Source: Phoronis australis
Taxonomy: Eukaryota; Animalia; Phoronida
Length of the DNA stretch: 64,000 nucleotides
NCBI GenBank assembly: GCA_002633005.1
Contig: NMRA01000113.1
Coordinates: 464,441-528,440, forward strand
Reading direction: 5' to 3'
Part shown: positions 30,301-48,800 of the stretch, piece after piece
How the letters are laid out: each line of letters opens with the position of its first letter
Numbering within the stretch: the stretch's first letter is position 1
Translations under genes and position numbers: made by a program
The notes under the pieces: generated by a model
Told to the model about the DNA's origin: nothing
The model's database searches: none
Seen by the model: the letters and a program-made list of their open reading frames with translations, nothing else

Positions 30301-33002
30301 GACATGTGAGCTTATATTTCAATCTTCTTGAACACTGCACCTCTAGTATACACCATATTAGTAAGTAGGCTAAAGAAAGGAGTAATGTGTACACTATTAC
30401 ATAGTCATAGATGTCCTGGAACTCAGTCGAGGTTTGTAATGCATTATCTTACCAGTGTGTGACACACATGCCTTTCAATCGGGGTCATTCTAATCCCGAT
30501 CGAAAGTCAAGCTGTAGCCATTCACAACAATCAATCTAACAACTCACTTGTCACGTCCGTAGACTACGGAGTGGCGAGTAGCGAACCTTGCCAAATTTAT
30601 GGCGTATCTATGTAAGCGTCCAGACCTACATAATATCGTATTCAGTACTCCCATTTTCATGGCATATATCAGAGGTATGATCTACAATATCGAGCTCTCA
30701 TGCCATGGGCCATGGCTATGATATTTCGGCTTTACAGTCTCACTGCATAATCACAACACAATCTGGGTACTGGCAGTTAGTAGAATAATTGAATTTAGAA
30801 ATTAATGGTCCTGATTTTGAGAACCAGATAAGCAATAAGTAGCAGACATGTTTTTTGGCGTGGATGAAACTGCTATGATCACCAATATTTTCGACCAGAG
30901 CCATCTGGCTAGGCTGGCTGCTAGCCACTACTGCACTAGCACTACACTGGCTAACACCGAAAATTGATCAGTCAGATCAGGACAGAAGTTTAATTCTTAA
31001 ATCATCAAATCAGCTGTTGATTAAGCACAACAAACAGGCACGTTTTGCAGTTACAAGGATAAACTAGGCATCTACTTACCTCACTGGCTGACGTAAATGT
31101 ATGAAATGGATACTGAAAATGTGAACAGCTTAACGGTTTTGCGCTTAAACTCAGTTTCCGGTTAGCTGGTCAGCGACACCTGTTGAAGAAAAGTTAACTT
31201 ACTGCCCTCAGCCACTCCCGCGTGCCGAGAATAGTTTGAACGGTGGCAAATTCTGTGGAAAATGACACTGTTTGGAAATTAGAGAGTGTTTAACCAATGA
31301 CTACCAATTATTTGATGTGACGAAAACGACTCACGAGCGGCGCAGAGCGAACAAAGACCGACAGCGGCGGGCCGCTGGGCTCGATCCGGCTGGCCGGAAT
31401 GACGGCAGTATATATTTTTCTGATAGACGGATTTTTAATTTTCCTTTTTCAATTTGACTCTATTAAATGGACCTACACTCGGACAACGCCAACACGACGT
31501 TGGACCGACGTCGGACTCAGCACCAACCAGGATTTCTCGCACCCGGCGTCGCATCCGCGTCGGCACAACGTCAAACGTGCCCGACGCTGAGCCAGCGTTG
31601 GTTTGACGTCAAGACTGAACAATACTCAAAGAAGGACAAATAGGTTGACTTATGCACGGCAGTAAATATTTTTCTGAATCACAGACGGATTTTTAATTTT
31701 CCTTTTTCAATTTGACGCTATAGTTAAATGGACCTACACTTTTGACAACGACTCGACGTTGGACCGACGTCGGACTCAGCACCACATATGATTTCTCGCA
31801 CCGCGTCGCACCCGCGTCGGCCCAACGCCAAACGTGCCCGACGCTGAGCCAACGTTGGTCCGACGTCAAGACTGAACAATATTCAAAGTAGGACAAATAG
31901 GTTGACTTATACACTGTGACTATAAAAAAATAATATCGCAAGCGTCGAATTTACTTGGAAGTGCAAAACAGGCTTTTAAAAGCAGTATCTCGTAGACCGC
32001 CGACCAACGTCGGACCAATGTCAAAAAACCGACCGCGACCAATCGACCTCGAGCCAACGAATGGCGACATCGGCCCAACGTAGTGATGCTATCTGGGGAC
32101 TAACGGTATGTTGATTTGCCTCAGCACGCTGTTGCATCACCTGACTTCAGGGCATGGCGTACAATTGAATCAAGTCTCTTCAAATCACTTGCTAATAGGC
32201 AATTGCCTCCTGGTCAAATGGTCCGGACACTTGACTCACACGCTGGAGATACCCAGTTAAAATCTCAATATTTTCATCAACTTCAGCAAAGGCAAAGGCA
32301 CCAACCTACGATGCAATCTGATCTAGCAAGAAATTGAGAATTTTATTACCATGCGCAAACTAATGCAACCAAAGCTGATGCAATATTCTGGTGTTGCTGG
32401 CAGTCTTTGACATCTGATTTTGACTCATCTCCTAGCCAGGAACACAGTAACTTTTCCAGACCATTCAAACAATCAGAGGGTTCCTTATACAAACTTAAAG
32501 GCTGGCATTCTTGCAGGCATCCCAGTAGGACAGATGCTGTTACACCACTCAGGCCATGATCAAAATGACTTTGTGATTGCAGTAAAGGCAGAACAAGTAG
32601 AACACTGAGCCTGGTCGAAAATGAAACTTGTTCACTGTCCTTCCACAGACCCTGTTTTCTTAGAAGGCCAACCGTTTCTTCCTGGTGTCCCTCCGACTCT
32701 TGTTCATTTTGTTCATCAACTGCAATCTGGCGTTGTGTTGACCAGAAACCTTTAAGTGCGTTCAGACGATACTCTAACAACCTTGAAAAAGCATTGTTGT
32801 GTGTCCCACATACAGTTCTCAAACGTTCGCTGAGTTCGTCTGGACTCTTGGAATCAAAAGTAATCACTTGTTCCTGGTTGACTTCACTCACATCTTCAGG
32901 GAGTTCTACAAGATCTGTGACACGAATGAGACCATCATGTAAAAACAAGGTCTCCTCGGTTAAAGATAACCACTGAGAACCATCCTGTTGTGAACCAGAC
33001 AT
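399..33002 (-). CDS. HECTD4: HECT domain E3 ubiquitin ligase 4, N-terminal part; multi-exon, continues beyond the left window edge
   Basis: First exon MSGSQQDGSQWLSLTEETLFLHDGLIRVTDLVELP matches the recalled HECTD4 N-terminus (QWLSVKEETIFLHDGLIRVTDLAELP); internal peptides such as GRTVETIHPVRDNYKFKETVTIPGARCLYLRFDSRCSSQYDYDK and RPFRLGAGANMERVVRMD also fit. Hand-placed GT-AG exons in transcript order (may be off by a few nt): 32350-33002, 25737-25948, 25080-25333, 23803-23964, 23421-23601, 22609-22789, 22090-22203, 21703-21846, 20094-20317, 19679-19740, 19076-19236, 18758-18860, 18009-18129, 17021-17188, 16478-16699, 15967-16073, 15595-15790, 15178-15402, 14026-14189, 13404-13592, 12819-13005, 11973-12077, 10901-10989, 10188-10375, 8199-8319, 7788-7923, 7189-7355, 6587-6733, 5591-5772, 4841-5003, 4201-4369, 3803-3877, 3192-3379, 2672-2846, 2437-2516, 1955-2142, 1585-1720, 399-569. 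The HECT domain is not in the window. Confidence 0.92.
620..1510 (+). mobile_element. Copy of a non-autonomous interspersed repeat family (Helentron-associated/HINE-like)
   Basis: Internal degenerate repeats of GCCACTAGGGGGCAC...AAATTTCAC(A)AAG; ends in the hairpin TGCATCCACACATGTGGGTGCA followed by an A run. The left boundary is approximate. Confidence 0.5.
5160..5590 (-). repeat. 80-bp tandem array (~5.5 units) copying the HECTD4 exon end and 5' splice site
   Basis: GGACTCAC recurs at ~5184, 5263, 5343, 5423, 5503 and 5583. Confidence 0.9.
5783..5885. repeat. 34-bp tandem repeat x3
   Basis: GCAACTAGCATGTAAACTGTTCTCAAGTGCTACA repeated three times. Confidence 0.9.
7103..7158. repeat. (CACACC)n(CA)n microsatellite
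   Basis: Read directly from the sequence. Confidence 0.95.
8326..9053 (+). mobile_element. Near full-length copy of the HINE-like repeat family
   Basis: Starts AACAACCAGAGCAAC; carries GCCCCTAGGGGGAGCAC, GCCACCAGGGGC and GCCACTAGAGGG subunits; ends with the ...GTGTGGGTGTATGAAA terminus shared with copies at 1480, 21280 and 55790. Confidence 0.5.
9055..9600 (+). mobile_element. Decayed Penelope-like retroelement fragment (GIY-YIG endonuclease)
   Basis: Frameshifted translation gives GAIY.KISCAVRDATYVGE...QEHKKDV...DHANNNDHVANWSNVTLL...KRIMWESIWM...NKDETGLRLSPVY, the characteristic C-terminal GIY-YIG region of Penelope-like elements. Confidence 0.8.
10620..10885. repeat. 36-bp minisatellite (~5 good units plus a decayed tail)
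   Basis: Unit AAATGTAATGTGCCGCGAC(T/A)TCACAACCTACATCAC; it explains the spurious KCNVPRLHNLHH ORF. Confidence 0.9.
11690..11880. repeat. Degenerate ~29-bp tandem repeat
   Basis: GGTAAACAGTGTTTACATGTCAAACC-like units. Confidence 0.75.
12290..12650. repeat. Degenerate ~30-bp tandem repeat
   Basis: TGTTGTTTACA(A/T)TTCACTGATGCTAGACACA-like units, roughly 11 copies. Confidence 0.8.
18234..18303. repeat. 26-bp tandem repeat x2.5
   Basis: AACACGTGGTTGTGAACATGGGCTGT units. Confidence 0.85.
20464..20680. repeat. 78-bp tandem repeat x~2.8
   Basis: GACTCTGGTAATTTGTAT... starts at 20464, 20542 and 20620. Confidence 0.9.
24050..24640 (+). mobile_element. Decayed Hero/R2-group non-LTR retrotransposon fragment (zinc-knuckle region before the RLE endonuclease)
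   Basis: Frameshifted translation QGEWTMWD...RKKIT...LRAVYEKLPMPRNLSLWG.AEDDRCASCGEPGTLQHIL..GKYTWRYNEVLKALA...WKMTVDL matches the recalled Hero-clade pattern AVYDVLPSPSNL..WG..C..C...GTLEHIL...GRYRWRHDQVL. Confidence 0.75.
28067..28293. mobile_element. Short MITE nested in the large insertion
   Basis: Terminal inverted repeats ATGCGCGCACCC...GGGTGCGTGCAT with an internal GGGGCTC/GAGCCCC hairpin. Confidence 0.65.
31404..31920. repeat. ~253-bp tandem duplication in the transposon subterminal region
   Basis: CGGCAGTA(T/A)ATATTTTTC...GGACAAATAGGTTGACTTAT begins at 31404 and again at 31657. Confidence 0.9.
32350..33002 (-). CDS. HECTD4: HECTD4 first coding exon
   Basis: ORF 32346..33002; donor TG|gtaat splices in frame to ag|G GGT AAC at 25948 (W-G-N-L-K). 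Confidence 0.92.
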
Positions 33003-33330
33003 GTTTAAACTGCATAGTTGTCGACGATCATTATCGCTGCAGCTTGCAAGTATCGTTGGCCATTTTTGTCAAATTCATCCAATCACGAATCACGGGCGTT
33101 TTGTGGCTGCAGCTCTATTTTACTGGAGCACGTCTTTAATTATTTATAAGTAATTAAACATTAAGATAAAATAATAAAGTTTATAACCACTAACTTAAAA
33201 AATCCATTGAAATGTAATTATTAATGCCAAATATTATCAATGCATTCCAACATAGTGTCATTTTTTGTGAACACCCACAAAGATTTCATTAGCTTATCAA
33301 AATATATTGACTTTTCCTTTTTGTTTAAAA
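33003..33330. promoter_or_regulatory. Probable bidirectional promoter between HECTD4 and the GNAT-PARP gene
   Basis: Divergent ATGs only 328 bp apart. CCAAT box at ~33079; YY1-like GCCATTTT at ~33059 and AAAATGGCG overlapping the ATG at 33331; AT-rich core 33135-33240. Confidence 0.6.
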
Positions 33331-36300
33331 ATGGCGTCACTTGGAGTCGAAAGTGAAATGTCCAGTGCAGATTTCGTGTCGATTGAAAACGATATGGATG
33401 CCAGTGTCGGTTCTAAAACATTAGGCGATAGTATGGACATAATGACAGGTGCACAGGTGTCTGACAGACGTGTTTTCAAGTCGAAAACTGGTCGGTCTGT
33501 TGCCGTTACACCGGTCATTTTGGACATTCGGCGCCTTTTGCAAACAACTGAACCGACAGGATCAGGGAAGAGGACGTTTGATGTTATTGCAGGTAGAAAT
33601 TCCATATGTGTAGATCCTGCTAAACTTGTTACATTGCTGACATGTTATTGTTTTTCTTTGCTTAGAGTGCTACCAAAACTAGTTTTAGTCTGTTGGTGTT
33701 AATTTATCCTTGCTTTTAATTCTAATGCATTGAGTTGCTGATTGAACCATAGGCATAGGCCGAATGGCCCTCATTTCATTTATAAAATTTACCACACTGG
33801 TTTGAAGTTTGTAATTTTATCTTGTACTGCATGACACTTTAATTACTACTCTTTAAAACTAGCCAAGAGTGAGATCCTAAGTGCCTCACTTTGATCAAAA
33901 CAAACAATTCTACACTACAGTGACACAAAAATTTGTTACTGTATCTGAGGTTATAATAAACTTGTCTAAGATGAAACATGTCACACAAGGCCACAGGTAA
34001 GGAAGGAAAAATCTCTTAGTGCACTTAATTAATCAATCATTCAAATTAATTTTTGCAATAAATTCTATAGGCCCTTCGTACAAAAATACCATTTAGATAT
34101 TTAAGCCAACAAAAAGTTCTCACAAAGCTGAAAATCTGAGAAAACATATAATATATACAAAGGTTAACAAATTGTTCATTTTCATTTGATGGTATCACTT
34201 TAATGAATTTACACAGGGAAGGTTGGTTACATGTCAATGCTTGTGTTACTAGAATGTTATGAACCACTGAACTCCCTTTATAAGTCACTCAAAGATAGTT
34301 TAGAATGAATAACAGACAAAAACTAAGCACTTTGTTTTATGCAGTAATATCAAAGTGCTCTATCTGTGGTTTGAAAGTATGCACTAATGATATGGGTGGC
34401 GCAGCACTGAAAAAAGTGGGGGACTATAGCTCCCTGTGGTGCACCATCCATAGACCATAAGTGCCGCAGCACTGAAAAAAGTGGGGGGGCTACAGCCCCC
34501 CAACCCCCTATGGCGTGCCGCCCATTACGAGTGTTGCACAATTTTTGTTACACGATTAGAAACATATGGTTCAAAAGAGGATTCTGTTAATTGGTGTGCA
34601 GTTAATTTTGGTTGTGCTTTATGTCCAGTAGAGATGTGTAGCCATCTCACAGAAAGTACAAGCATTTTTCATTTAGTCTTTGGTTTCAAGTCAAGCATTA
34701 CAAGTGTTTTTGAGGTTATGATTTTGAACTTCATGCAAATGTGAATTGACATGCAGAACATTTCGATGGACTGATACTCCAAATATCCATAGTATTACAT
34801 AATATTTTGTTTTGTGCTAAGTGTTTTTCTTCTTTCATTATAGGTATCCCTAATCAAGACTTGGTGCATGCAGTTGTAGGCTTGTATGATGTTGCATTAC
34901 CAGAAATGACCCCAGATATTCTTTATTCTACTGTTGGAGAAAAGTGGGCCAGGTCCATTCTGTTGGTGCGAGATGTGTCAGATGTACTAAGTGAACTCAA
35001 CCAAAGTAGACAGGCTTTGACAGAAAGTAGCGAAAAATCCACAACAGATATCACTGATAACATTGTTGCTGTGCCCCAAAGTGAGTATAGGTTTAGTTAT
35101 AAAAAGGTCAGTTGTCTTCAAGTGATCTACTGATATTCAAAATATTAAGATTTGTTGCCAGAAAACAAGGTCCATGCAACAGATGCCTCGCTGTCTGTGT
35201 TGAGACCTGTACCAAGCAGAAGTTTAATTTATTGGCTGCATAAAAGTAGTAAGCAAAGCAATAGTTCTGATAGCACTAAAGCATTGTAAGTTTTTGTAAT
35301 TGAGTAACATTTGTTTTTCTCTGGCTTGAAGAATTCGGGCATTTTTTCCTAATGGCAGAACAATGATACAAGATTCGTTATTTTATGTTGTTTTGTGTCT
35401 ACCTTCTTTTTGGTTGCTTTTAGATGATGTTTTTACTGCTGAGGAGAGTGGGCCAAACACATTTGATCTGATATACAGCGACAACGAAGGTGGAAACCCA
35501 GAAGAGTCTGATGATGATGAGGAAGAAGATTTCTCAAAGGGAATTTACAAATTTATCAAATCTGCTCAAGAAAGGAGACTTAAACGTAGAACGTTCAAGG
35601 GTCTACTGACAGCTGACGACATTGGTATTGAGGATAGGCTTGTGGCCTGTGCAACATTTGAAAAGAAATATTGCAAGCCTGGTGAGAAAGTCATCCACTT
35701 GACAGTCATTGCCACTCGCAAGAAGTACAGGCAGATGGGTGTGGGCAAATATCTCTTACAGCAGTTGAAGGACCCTCTTGTAGTAGGACATTATGATGTC
35801 ATTGTTGTACATGCTGACAACTCGGCCATTGACTTTTTTGAACACTATGGCTTCACCAGTGATGTAGTATTAAACAGTCGTTGGAGTGAGCTAGCTGAAC
35901 AGTTCACAAACTGCACCATGATGTGTTACTTGCCTCCCTTCACAGGCCAGACATTGTTGGGAAGCAGTCACCAGGCTATGGACATCCTGGCTATGGAGAG
36001 AGAGATCAAGCAGTGGCAAGAGAAGAGTCTACAGTCCTACCAGTCTCACATTAGTCTGGTCACCAGGCTCAAGCATGAGATCATCCACCTGAGGGCGCTG
36101 GTGCTCTCTCAACAGGACCTCATCACCAATGTATCAGCTGAAAATGAGAAATTGCAACATGAAAAGTTTCTGCTCGAGAAGGAGTTCTTGCAGTATAAAC
36201 TGTCCCAGACTGGCAAGTCAGTGTTCAACGATGATGACGATGATGAGATGAGTGCTGAGGCTAATACTCAATATTTAATCTCGCGCTTGGAAAAACAGCT

Positions 36301-36958
36301 CAATCTGAAAACACGATTTCAGATGGCAAAACGAGAGAGTGTTGATGGCACTGAAGACACAAGTACTTACATGTTTTCACAAAAAGATGAAAGTTCTGAG
36401 GCTTATGACCATGGAAAAGACATGGCCGAATTTTATCAAGTCAATCAAGATTTTAACAGAAGTTGCAGGGAGTCTGATCTTGCTGATATGAAACTAGACA
36501 TTAGTTTGATTTCTAAGGCTCTAGTCAATAGTAGTGTCCTCGAGCGTTATGCAATGACCAAAGAAAAACTTCAAAATCCCAACATGACCATACGTCTATA
36601 TTACTGCGGTACACTTGAACATCCTGAAAGAATTCCTGACATTGTGAAGAATGGTTTCTCTGAGAAAGACTTTTCCCATGGCGAGTATGGTTGTGGTCTT
36701 TACTTCTCCAAGTCGGCCACTAAAGCCATGCCATTCTCAGCTAAGGGTAAGCTGATTATTGCTGATGTTGCTATTGGTAACCCGGAGAGCATCATTAAGA
36801 AGGACAATGGGCGCACTTGTCCTTCTCATGGTTATGATTCTACTGTCACCCCAGGTAGGCTAGTATCTTCCAGGGACGACACCAAGTGTCAGGAGTATGT
36901 CATATTCAACTTCAATCAGGCTCTGCCTTTGTTTTTAATTGATTACTCTTGTTCTTAA
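33331..36958 (+). CDS. Uncharacterised ~677-aa protein: Gcn5-like GNAT acetyltransferase + coiled coil + PARP-like ADP-ribosyltransferase domain
   Basis: Exons 33331-33592, 34844-35080 and 35424-36958 sum to 2034 nt; both introns are GT-AG phase 1 and the frame is continuous. GNAT motif A (IHLTVIATRKKYRQMGVGKYLL) and motif B (VVHADNSAIDFFEHYGF). PARP-type motifs LYYCGT, GEYGCGLYFS, LIIADVAIG, GYDS, QEYVIFNFNQALPLFLIDY. Confidence 0.85.
34392..34524. mobile_element. Short MITE, tandem dimer, in intron 1 of the GNAT-PARP gene
   Basis: TIR ATGGGTGGCGCA...GTGCCGCCCAT with two GCAGCACTGAAAAAAGTGGGGG units; a second copy lies at 41315-41457. Confidence 0.75.
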
Positions 36959-45879: not shown

Positions 45880-48800
45880 ATGGGAAAGCAAAGCAGAACA
45901 GGAAGTGATACAAGTACACCATTAGGTGCAAAGGGGAAAGGTTGAGTTTAAACAGATATGTAAAGGAATAACTACATCAAATACAATATGAATATCAACA
46001 ACAGTCTGATAATACGAGACAATCTATCTGTTTTGAAGACCTGAGAAATATATGCCATGAATGTTGCATCACATTGTATGACTCCGTTTAGAATGGAATG
46101 TACAGAACTGAGTTGTCGACTGCTGAGACATGATTCCATCATTTGAGTGCTTGTACTCTTAGTCAGTCTAAGTAAAGTTAAAAGTGTTGCATAAACAGTT
46201 TGAAGTTCAAATAAATTATGCTATGTAGAACAATCATGCAATGTGACTTTATTTCACCTTACTGTTGTAAATATTTGTTATTTATAATTTGTTTAACCAA
46301 AAACTACAAAGAGGACATTTTCTTCATATTTTAGATGAACCTGTGAAGAAAAAGAAGTGGAGAAAATCTCTTGTGAAAGCAGTGAAGCCATCAAACCTTC
46401 AAGAAGAGCGCCAGACATTTATGAAGAAACAGTTTGAATACAATCCACAATTCACATACGTCCACCCTATAGACACTGAATTTCATCCAAAGTTTGGATA
46501 CGTTTCAAGCAAATACCTTCCAGAAGTATGCAGTTTTTTGTTTCCATTGTGAAAATGTCTCTGTAAGACATGAGATACATGATGGCAAAAACAAACATAG
46601 GATTTTTCATATAGGGTTAACATTGAACATTGATTGCAATGTTTTTTTTTCTAAAGGATGCAGGACATTTGCATAGTACAGGGATATTGTTTTTAGTGTA
46701 CAATAAGCAATGCAAAAATTCTGAAAATGTTTCATCAAAAATTGAAGACAGAGTTAGAGTCAATTTAGGGAATGCAAAATACCTTTGTTTCTCATTTTAT
46801 TACAAAATCATTACATCTGTTATGATTTCAATCAACTTCAGAAATTATTAAGAATTATTTGGTAACTAATTACTATAAGAGATGTTTTTTGTCTTGAATA
46901 GTGATTTCTTACTTCTTACATATGTAGGCATTTTCAGTGAATATTGTGACTTATTTTTTACACTGTTGAGTTAAGAAATTCCTTTTATTGACTTCTGAAG
47001 TGGAAATAATGTCGCAAACTTTTTGAGATTCCTGCACTAGTCCTCTATGTTAGTATAGATGGTGTAATTCATCATTGCTACATTCTTACTGATTAACGGT
47101 ACAGTACACTTTAAAAGCTTATGCAGTGCTGACATATCAACACAGCTCATTACTTGATATTGTCTATTGCTTTCTCATGATTGTCACCTCTGATAAAACA
47201 GGCATGCATTTCAAGTGCAAATCCAGACATTACTGAAGATTGTTCTGTGAGATTTGGAGATATTTAATGTGTCAGACTTACTGTTTACTGTGTTTGCAGG
47301 CTATCCATATTTTAAAAACCACGCTGGCACGGTTTGGAAGTTATGAAGAGTTTGCGCGAGTTTCTGGTGGAAATGTATTGTCTCTTGGTACATTAAAGCA
47401 ACGAATACAGGATTATATAGAAATTGAGGGACTGGAGGAGCAGATTGATGTGGTGGTGTCTGAGCACTGTGTCTCCAGAGGATGTCTGACTAAGATTGGA
47501 AAAGCAAGGCACCGCCTCACAGTGAAACCAGACATCAGAGAAGGATGGATAGATGGATTACTACGTCATGAAGTTGGTAAGGGGTCAAAGATGCTCACCC
47601 ACTACAGATTACGTTATTTATCGAGTTGGTGTCATTTACTAGTTTCTGAACAAATTCCAATTAAATGTGATCAACTGAATTAGTTTTAAAAATACACTTT
47701 TTTTCTAATAATTAACTAAAATGCAAATAATTGTACTTATCTGAATTAATGCCTATGTCTTGTATGCACCTCAAAATCATCACACCCATGCTGACTTATG
47801 TGTATTAGACACAGAACCAAAACCCTACATGTGCTGACCAAGTGAGTTGCACACCAACTTTCATGCAAGCCGATCATGGTTGCAAACATTTCCCATATCA
47901 CACGCTCAACAAATGTACTTTGCAAATCAACCATTCGGGTAAATGCCCACCCCCAGCCTCTCAGAAATTTTTAAAAGATACGCTTGTCCTAACTTACCAA
48001 CCAAGGAGGCAGTGTGGCCTAGTGTGATAGGTGCCTGCCTTCTTTACTCAAGGTCGTGGGTTTGAGTCCAACTGGGCCACACTGTTAAACCCTTGATTCA
48101 GGTTTCTAGCTCCTCAGCTCGGTTTTAACTACATATTAATAAAGCACAGAAATAGTTCCAGGTGACCAATGCAATGGGCCCACATGTGCCGCCTGCGCAT
48201 GTCTGGTACAACATGTACCAAACTGCCTGCAATTATTTTTTATAACTTCCCAACCTGTTGGCATTCTGGGCTTGGCTTTTCATAATCGTAATAAATCAAT
48301 TATCTTCACTACCAGGACCATAAAACAATTGTTAATCTGTGTTCAGTTACACAGTCCAAGTGGGACAGTTGTATGACTAAGAGCAGGGCTTGAAAAAATA
48401 GATAACAGTCTTTTTGAAACATATACATATATGGCCATAGGCCCAAAGTATAACATATACAGGACAGAACATTGTGAAGTGCGTTACAAACTGGATAATA
48501 AATTGTGACGCTTGAGAGCATGGTGGACGAATTTTAGAAGTAGGATATCCGGAGTTCCCATGAGAGATTCAAATTTAGGTGTTGTGGGAGAATGACAGGA
48601 ATGACCTCAGTGTGGAGAGGAGAGATGACGATTACGAATTCGACTACTGTGGTGACTCGTAGTGGTAGTTATGTTTTTTGGGCCCATGGCTGTATCTCCT
48701 AAACCATTTGCAGGATCTTTTCTAAATTTAGCAAGTGTATTTACATGATGTTGGCAACAGATGACAACTTTCGGACAGATCTGACTACCAGTGTGCCCCC

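Follow-up and report, generated by a model that had tools for sequence, protein, structure and literature searches.

A Gcn5-like acetyltransferase domain joined to a predicted coiled coil and a PARP-type domain lacking the triad histidine in Phoronis australis and other eukaryotes

A gene in a 64,000-nucleotide stretch of Phoronis australis DNA (hereafter the window) encodes a protein that, according to structure models, combines a fold of the Gcn5 type with a long helix and with a PARP-type fold in which the triad histidine is missing. The protein belongs to an ancient, unstudied family of eukaryotes, which is best read as comprising acyl-CoA-dependent, Gcn5-like enzymes with an accessory pseudo-PARP module.

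The 677-amino acid frame consists of three coding exons on the + strand: 33331..33592, opening with the ATG and supported by the GT-AG model, RNA reads and alignment of homologues; 34844..35080; and 35424..36958, open up to the stop codon. They are separated by GT-AG introns of 1251 nt (33593..34843) and 343 nt (35081..35423). The clean three-exon frame of the preliminary description is confirmed by RNA reads across both junctions in two of four runs. Junction 1 is spanned by two reads in run X2 and three in X3, and junction 2 by four in each of the same runs; X1 covers the exons with no junction listed, and in X4 the exons have no coverage. Read depth is about 1-9x, 18-19% of each raw run having been used, and the RNA strand over the gene is +. 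Arithmetically, 24 GT-AG combinations yield 677 amino acids, which might suggest a chance frame or two adjacent genes artificially joined; consensus at all four splice ends is found in one of the 24. The C-terminal half of the acetyltransferase (GNAT) domain, the coil and the PARP-type domain all lie within the single unbroken exon 3, both junctions occur in RNA, and the GNAT and PARP Pfam domains are found together in 39 of 49 homologues, leaving the artefact reading refuted and practically without probability. Among the read differences listed (40 of 69), 19 of the 25 in the coding sequence are synonymous and six non-synonymous, although synonymous sites make up only 432 of the 2031 (1599 being non-synonymous). 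The gene is therefore under purifying selection, besides being real and expressed. A neighbouring gene is transcribed in the opposite direction from about position 33100, as judged from RNA reads; searches of the Atlas, Pfam and PDB gave no usable name for the upstream gene's exon.

Within the exon-3 frame, Pfam recognises Acetyltransf_1 (E=1.5e-7) and PARP (E=2.3e-10), both passing the curated cut-off. An AlphaFold model of the same frame (pLDDT 86, pTM 0.45) shows half a GNAT domain, a helix of 85 residues and, at the C-terminus, a domain about 180 residues long. The GNAT and ART folds were thus both recovered with Pfam and structure models, as the preliminary description had proposed. The fold of the whole protein is read from the model of the Lingula orthologue (pLDDT 82.5, pTM 0.57), which is 51% identical to the window's exon-3 frame; as pTM is low, these models leave the relative placement of the domains unpredicted. 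Conservation over 63 rows decreases from the C-terminal GNAT half (0.62) to the ART core (0.57) and the coil (0.46).

The C-terminal half of the Gcn5-like domain, at 35636..35941 (+), is identified by Pfam, profile, model and family alignment. Searched against the PDB, the family profile places Tetrahymena Gcn5 on top (E=2e-12). The best GNAT match of Lingula model residues 61-381 is yeast Gcn5 (161/164 aligned, Z 16.7, rmsd 2.7), to which the window's exon-3 model aligns over 96 residues (Z 9.4). The Lingula alignment indicates that exons 1 and 2 supply the N-terminal half of one Gcn5-type domain. In exon 1, the N-terminus is poorly conserved and the first GNAT strand begins at about 33502 in the homologue alignment; in exon 2, where the Gcn5-like half runs to 34974, family profile positions 63-110 match residues 17-64 of Tetrahymena Gcn5, weakly when taken on its own. 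The GNAT domain seen earlier is therefore present, but its extent had to be corrected: its start lies in exons 1-2, and an acidic insert of 106 amino acids splits it. This insert (34975..35635, +; residues 132-237) spans intron 2 and contains 26 Asp or Glu residues against 11 Lys or Arg. Within it lies a conserved F-x4-S-D motif (35462-35482, +), present in 62 of the 70 rows where the region aligns, around which pLDDT rises locally in both the Lingula and the exon-3 models. Conservation of the motif and the locally high model confidence suggest that this region docks somewhere.

Motif A, RQMGVG, lies at 35729-35746 (+), and was rightly taken for the acetyl-CoA loop; the consensus R/Q-x-x-G-x-G/A forms the CoA pyrophosphate loop (PMC8556138). 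Both motif A and the A-D-N motif (35813-35821, +) are almost invariant across family rows, motif A having R/Q in 84/86, the first Gly in 71/86 and the second in 83/87. By profile and alignment, His258 (35696-35698, +) occupies the site of the Gcn5 base glutamate (yeast E173), which in the family as a whole is His in 36, Gln in 29 and Glu in five of 85 rows. A second acidic residue, the Asp 40 residues past the base site (KAT2A D615, KAT2B D610), is kept in 82 of 87 rows. Human KAT2A is dead only when both E575 and D615 are mutated, the second change, in the Asp 40 residues on, being required for inactivity in KAT2A/B, and a Glu base is dispensable in some GNATs (PMC8556138). Conversely, a Glu-to-Gln change in Cryptococcus Gcn5 lowers H3 acetylation to a knockout-like level (PMC10732044). 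Retention of motif A, the A-D-N motif and the second Asp makes it likely, from sequence, that the GNAT domain binds CoA; efficient transfer of acyl groups is less certain. Given the scarcity of the base Glu and the crippling Gln substitution in Cryptococcus, this domain may be dead as well as the PARP domain. Pfam detected no bromodomain in any of the three exon frames, nor in 17 related proteins, and the C-terminus models as coil plus PARP.

The heptad-rich segment of the preliminary description corresponds to an 85-residue helix (35972..36226, +), predicted to be a coiled coil from the model and the heptad pattern. In the best register its core has hydrophobic residues at 75% of a/d positions, versus 36% overall; one Trp, one Glu and two Leu are conserved. 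Two copies of the Lingula GNAT and coil portion (residues 40-480), folded without alignment or control folds, gave a homodimer score of 0.20 against a mark of 0.32. Oligomerisation might occur through the coil.

The PARP-type (ARTD) domain spans 36410..36955 (+) and is supported by Pfam, Foldseek, model and alignments. The earlier assignment to this class stands, with a length of about 180 amino acids in place of 130. Foldseek matches reach E values of about 1e-9; by structural alignment the closest fold is tankyrase-2 (Z 19.4, rmsd 2.7, 171 aligned), followed by PARP10, RCD1, PARP13 and PARP3; a chain of the Toxoplasma pre-conoid ring also matches the fold (Z 11.1, rmsd 3.6, 158 aligned). The triad histidine is absent at positions 392-395 in all 84 aligned rows, in both possible registers. 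In HMMER alignments, residue 393 lies opposite the triad His in tankyrase and PARP10 and opposite Tyr in PARP13; it is Tyr in 39, Phe in 34 and Leu in seven of the 84 rows, and corresponds to Tyr560 (36602-36604, +) in the window. The family motif at this site is L-Y-[YF]-C-G, the Gly site being Cys (Cys561 here), else Gly, Ser or Ala. The spacing to the G-F motif is 14 residues in eight short members, as in PARP10 and PARP13, and 12 or 15-53, mostly 17, in the other 66 rows counted. With the canonical 14-residue spacing of the shortest members and the alignments to tankyrase, PARP10 and PARP13 favouring this register, the triad most likely reads Y/F-Y-E, with Cys mostly at the Gly site. A C-Y-E triad, in which His would be changed to Cys as in plant PARP3, is the alternative register and is disfavoured by the same alignments and spacing.

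Other features of the site are better preserved. The triad Tyr (Tyr593 here) is kept in 76/84 rows, the Glu (Glu657 here, 36893-36895, +, by alignments) in 77/84 and the stacking-site aromatic in 69/83; the site resembling PARP1 K903 is Lys in 39/84 and a pocket-floor Cys is found in 66/84. The window's protein also has Ala601 and Phe604. The Ser of the PARP site contacts nicotinamide; the position that is Ser in PARP4 and tankyrase is occupied by Ala in 80 of 84 rows. Conservation reaches 90% or more at fifteen ART positions, the loop preceding the Glu has a PARP4-like length, and seven of the eight listed read differences in the PARP domain are synonymous. In the human PARP table, PARP13 (Y-Y-V) and TASOR (L-Y-Q) are inactive and the PARPs listed as active all have His, except for the disputed PARP9 (PMC7955679). 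Since the backbone contacts can survive a side chain at the Gly site (PMC7955679), the Cys alone would not be disabling. PARP13, RCD1 and TASOR are each short of two or more NAD+ contacts; all three are inactive and act by binding (PMC7532188; table in PMC7955679). Arabidopsis PARP3 has its Glu but shows neither NAD+ binding nor activity (PMC6701155). In the favoured register, the family has lost at least two such contacts (His absent, Ser to Ala, Gly to Cys), and the domain is probably a pseudo-PARP devoid of catalysis. Hidden activity is possible, since Tyr, Glu and the stacking aromatic are kept beyond what is seen in PARP13 and TASOR.

A first search returned 49 homologues from lophotrochozoans, ambulacrarians and cnidarians, all labelled as uncharacterised, as hypothetical or by automatic domain names. 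A representative library gave 351 matches at E<=0.001, of which the best 150 were examined and 30 looked up by name; a vertebrate profile search yielded 24 matches, and in the Atlas both chordates and rotifers have matching clusters. When distant members made up the profile, the search yielded only three proteins, each of them already part of the query. The three-part architecture occurs in Cyanophora paradoxa, Pigoraptor chileana, the ctenophore Pleurobrachia, Trichoplax, Macrostomum and Symsagittifera, in cnidarians, lophotrochozoans and echinoderms and, among vertebrates, in sharks, Callorhinchus, the coelacanth Latimeria and amphibians. The mapping of phyla proposed at the outset thus takes in a glaucophyte and a filasterean at one end and amphibians at the other. 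GNAT and coil without the PARP domain are found in the ray-finned fish Amia, Polyodon and Lepisosteus, lampreys, the tunicate Styela, the horseshoe crabs Limulus and Tachypleus, the fluke Dicrocoelium, the crinoid Antedon and the sponge Sycon. Named matches mostly represent one locus per species, Macrostomum and Symsagittifera being exceptions; they include no amniote, insect, nematode, fungus or land plant in these word-limited searches, which missed zebrafish too.

The history of the PARP domain was followed on a quick tree of the C-terminal GNAT half and coil (78 rows, 47 with and 31 without PARP; P0126 left out). The tree broadly follows animal groups, with support for molluscs, for ambulacrarians and for vertebrates; it places the window's protein within the lophotrochozoans, without a resolved position. 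At least 14 changes of PARP label are needed, eight of them forced by strongly supported branches. Coherent PARP-less groups are formed by ray-finned fish, by horseshoe crabs together with their relatives, and by the tunicate and fluke rows; a number of rows lacking PARP come from partial models, the Owenia record being labelled as such. From these sequences we infer an ancestral three-part protein from which PARP was lost repeatedly. An early-eukaryote origin would follow from one named alga, one filasterean and further relatives, deep support in the tree being weak.

Among known acetyltransferases, Gcn5/PCAF (KAT2) are closest by profile and fold, sharing motif A, the A-D-N motif and the C-terminal strand. 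In the present family, however, an acidic insert splits the domain, the base Glu is mostly His or Gln, no bromodomain was detected, and a coil and a PARP fold follow; lack of the base Glu and the bromodomain sets the family outside KAT2. Likewise, active ARTD/PARP proteins (tankyrase-1/2, PARP4, PARP10) share the fold (Z 16-19), the triad Tyr and Glu and a G-x-G-x-Y-F motif, whereas the family has Tyr, Phe or Leu for His, mostly Cys for Gly and Ala for Ser, and their accessory domains were not found; without the His it stands outside the active PARPs. PARP13/ZAP, TASOR, RCD1/SRO, Arabidopsis PARP3 and LRRC9-ART also combine a PARP fold with a replaced His, by Tyr in PARP13 and LRRC9, Leu in TASOR and Cys in AtPARP3 (PMC7955679, PMC6701155). 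The family differs from these pseudo-PARPs in keeping both Tyr and Glu, in the fused GNAT domain and in standing apart as a family with its own L-Y-[YF]-C-G motif, its inactivity being deduced from residues. In its workings the protein would resemble Gcn5 with a domain of the PARP13/TASOR type attached. As the preliminary description had it, no characterised GNAT-PARP fusion is described in the literature searched, nor was a description of the family found there, subscription journals lying largely outside the coverage. The excerpts of the main PARP surveys (PMC4245714, PMC2964712) and of PMC7955679 make no mention of an acetyltransferase fusion, and those of PMC10450202, PMC9027952 and bioRxiv 10.64898/2026.07.25.740670 contain nothing on a GNAT-PARP family. 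The architecture already exists in databases as automatic annotation, hence we regard the family as an undescribed variant of known parts and not as a new kind of system.

The expression lead found comes from one gene list in one species, the zebrafish, and concerns si:dkeyp-50b9.1, a name also carried by Callorhinchus, Scyliorhinus and Polyodon records. The window's protein is homologous to records so named over GNAT and coil, with a species-like quick tree, and its membership in the orthogroup is by way of these records. Orthogroup members share the GNAT and coil core and have all three parts in sharks, chimaera, coelacanth and amphibians, but lack the PARP domain in ray-finned fish; the zebrafish protein is probably also without it, by analogy with three other ray-finned fish. 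No function was found described for the orthogroup, that list being the sole full-text mention found. There, si:dkeyp-50b9.1 belongs to the 25 genes with the strongest increase in male-developing juveniles, with higher expression in testis than in ovary, and is listed beside the meiotic genes sycp3, hormad1 and dmc1 and the flagellar genes dnah6, tekt1 and spag16, the same male-up list including ttc29 and tcte1 (bioRxiv 10.1101/650218).

The explanation that we tentatively put first, at a little under even chances, is that the protein acts in germ or flagellated cells as a Gcn5-like lysine acyltransferase whose acidic insert handles basic substrates, whose coil serves as interaction rod and whose dispensable pseudo-PARP is a targeting module. 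Its GNAT domain would bind acetyl-CoA and acylate lysine residues in basic proteins, such as histones or other sperm proteins, presumably more slowly than Gcn5 or by means of a different base. The acidic insert with its F-x4-S-D motif could capture basic substrates or gate the site, and the coil could bind a partner or a second copy of the protein. By analogy with PARP13, TASOR and RCD1, the pseudo-PARP would bind protein, RNA or a nucleotide and so serve to target the enzyme; a non-catalytic docking or binding module on a protein acetyltransferase is the likely role of this domain. Male germ cells are possibly the site of action, and they or flagellated cells the likely setting of the mechanism.

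Rather unlikely, though next in probability, is that both domains are dead or nearly so, leaving a coiled-coil scaffold of germ cells or flagella with CoA as a structural or sensing ligand. The rarity of the base Glu next to a frequent Gln, the substitution that cripples Cryptococcus Gcn5 (PMC10732044), would fit such a scaffold, as would the missing PARP His, the company of dnah6, tekt1, spag16, ttc29 and tcte1 in the zebrafish list and the pre-conoid ring match, a fold-level hint of structural PARP-like domains. The almost invariant CoA loop and second Asp argue for an enzyme instead; not all GNATs need the Glu base (PMC8556138), and His, the commonest residue at that site, could itself act as one. 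The dual writer or metabolite sensor of the preliminary description, in which an atypical Y/F-Y-E mono-ADP-ribosyltransferase or NAD+ binder would work with or regulate the acetyltransferase, has become doubtful and we consider it unlikely, as the PARP His is missing family-wide, the base Glu is mostly replaced and the PARP domain has been dispensed with in several lineages. Speaking for it are the well-kept Tyr and Glu, the K903-like Lys, the pocket-floor Cys, the fifteen conserved ART positions, the fold closest to tankyrase, the PARP4-like loop and the mostly synonymous PARP-domain differences. Against these stand the Cys and Ala replacements and the precedents of PARP13 and RCD1, inactive without two or more NAD+ contacts (PMC7532188), and of Arabidopsis PARP3, inactive with its Glu in place (PMC6701155). 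A narrower version, less probable again, is that the His-less Y/F-Y-E pocket with its conserved Cys controls the Gcn5-like acetyltransferase on the same chain by binding, or turning over, NAD+ or some related nucleotide; if true, one polypeptide of sperm or flagellated cells would link the chemistries of acetyl-CoA and NAD+, by a histidine-free ARTD chemistry.

The suggestion of a PARP acting in antiviral or stress defence, like PARP9-15, found no pointer and appears very improbable. Antiviral PARPs turn over fast, whereas here the tree broadly tracks animal groups, recovering molluscs, ambulacrarians and vertebrates, selection is purifying and named matches mostly amount to a single locus per species. 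Pfam found no WWE, macro or zinc-finger domains; PARP13 and PARP10 are nevertheless among the close folds, and pseudo-PARP status would be compatible with defence, as in PARP13.

On the preferred reading of a Gcn5-like acyltransferase with an accessory module, the family adds an enzyme with an internal acidic insert to the known variety of GNATs. It also represents an overlooked ART-like lineage, with a His-less site in which Tyr and Glu are intact. The natural three-domain version of frogs and two-domain version of fish offer a way to ask what the pseudo-PARP does, and the same contrast bears on whether an ARTD works without His. The family may include an unrecognised spermatogenesis acetyltransferase of aquatic animals.

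Immediately upstream of the GNAT-PARP gene lies a divergently transcribed neighbour, whose first coding exon (218 aa; window 32346-33002, minus strand) is covered by RNA reads on the opposite strand, the two ATGs being separated by 328 bases. Read coverage of this exon is deeper than that of the GNAT-PARP gene. The exon appears to encode the N-terminal part of HECTD4, an E3 ligase; searches of Pfam, Atlas and PDB confirmed no name for it. Within intron 1 of the GNAT-PARP gene, a short GC-rich stretch (34390-34525) is probably a dispersed repeat, because numerous reads from other loci cover it on both strands and diverge from the window sequence beyond it. Further downstream, an exon on the plus strand (47237-47683) matches a KIAA0895-like protein (PDB 7z5g, E=1.5e-10), known as the tubulin carboxypeptidase MATCAP.

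Three protein records carry other domain combinations. One, from Acipenser ruthenus (P0213), joins TINF2_N, an aminotransferase and the family's GNAT domain in a single 1012-aa model, probably through the merging of adjacent genes. Another (P0072) fuses a reverse transcriptase to the family's coil and PARP domain, a probable mis-model. The third, P0179, belongs to the ZNFX1-type helicases and matches PARP twice.

Finally, the PARP fold of the GNAT-PARP protein aligns with chain AB of PDB 9ya0, a Toxoplasma pre-conoid ring chain (Z 11.1, 158 residues aligned). This match suggests that a PARP-like domain has a structural role in the cytoskeleton of one apicomplexan.
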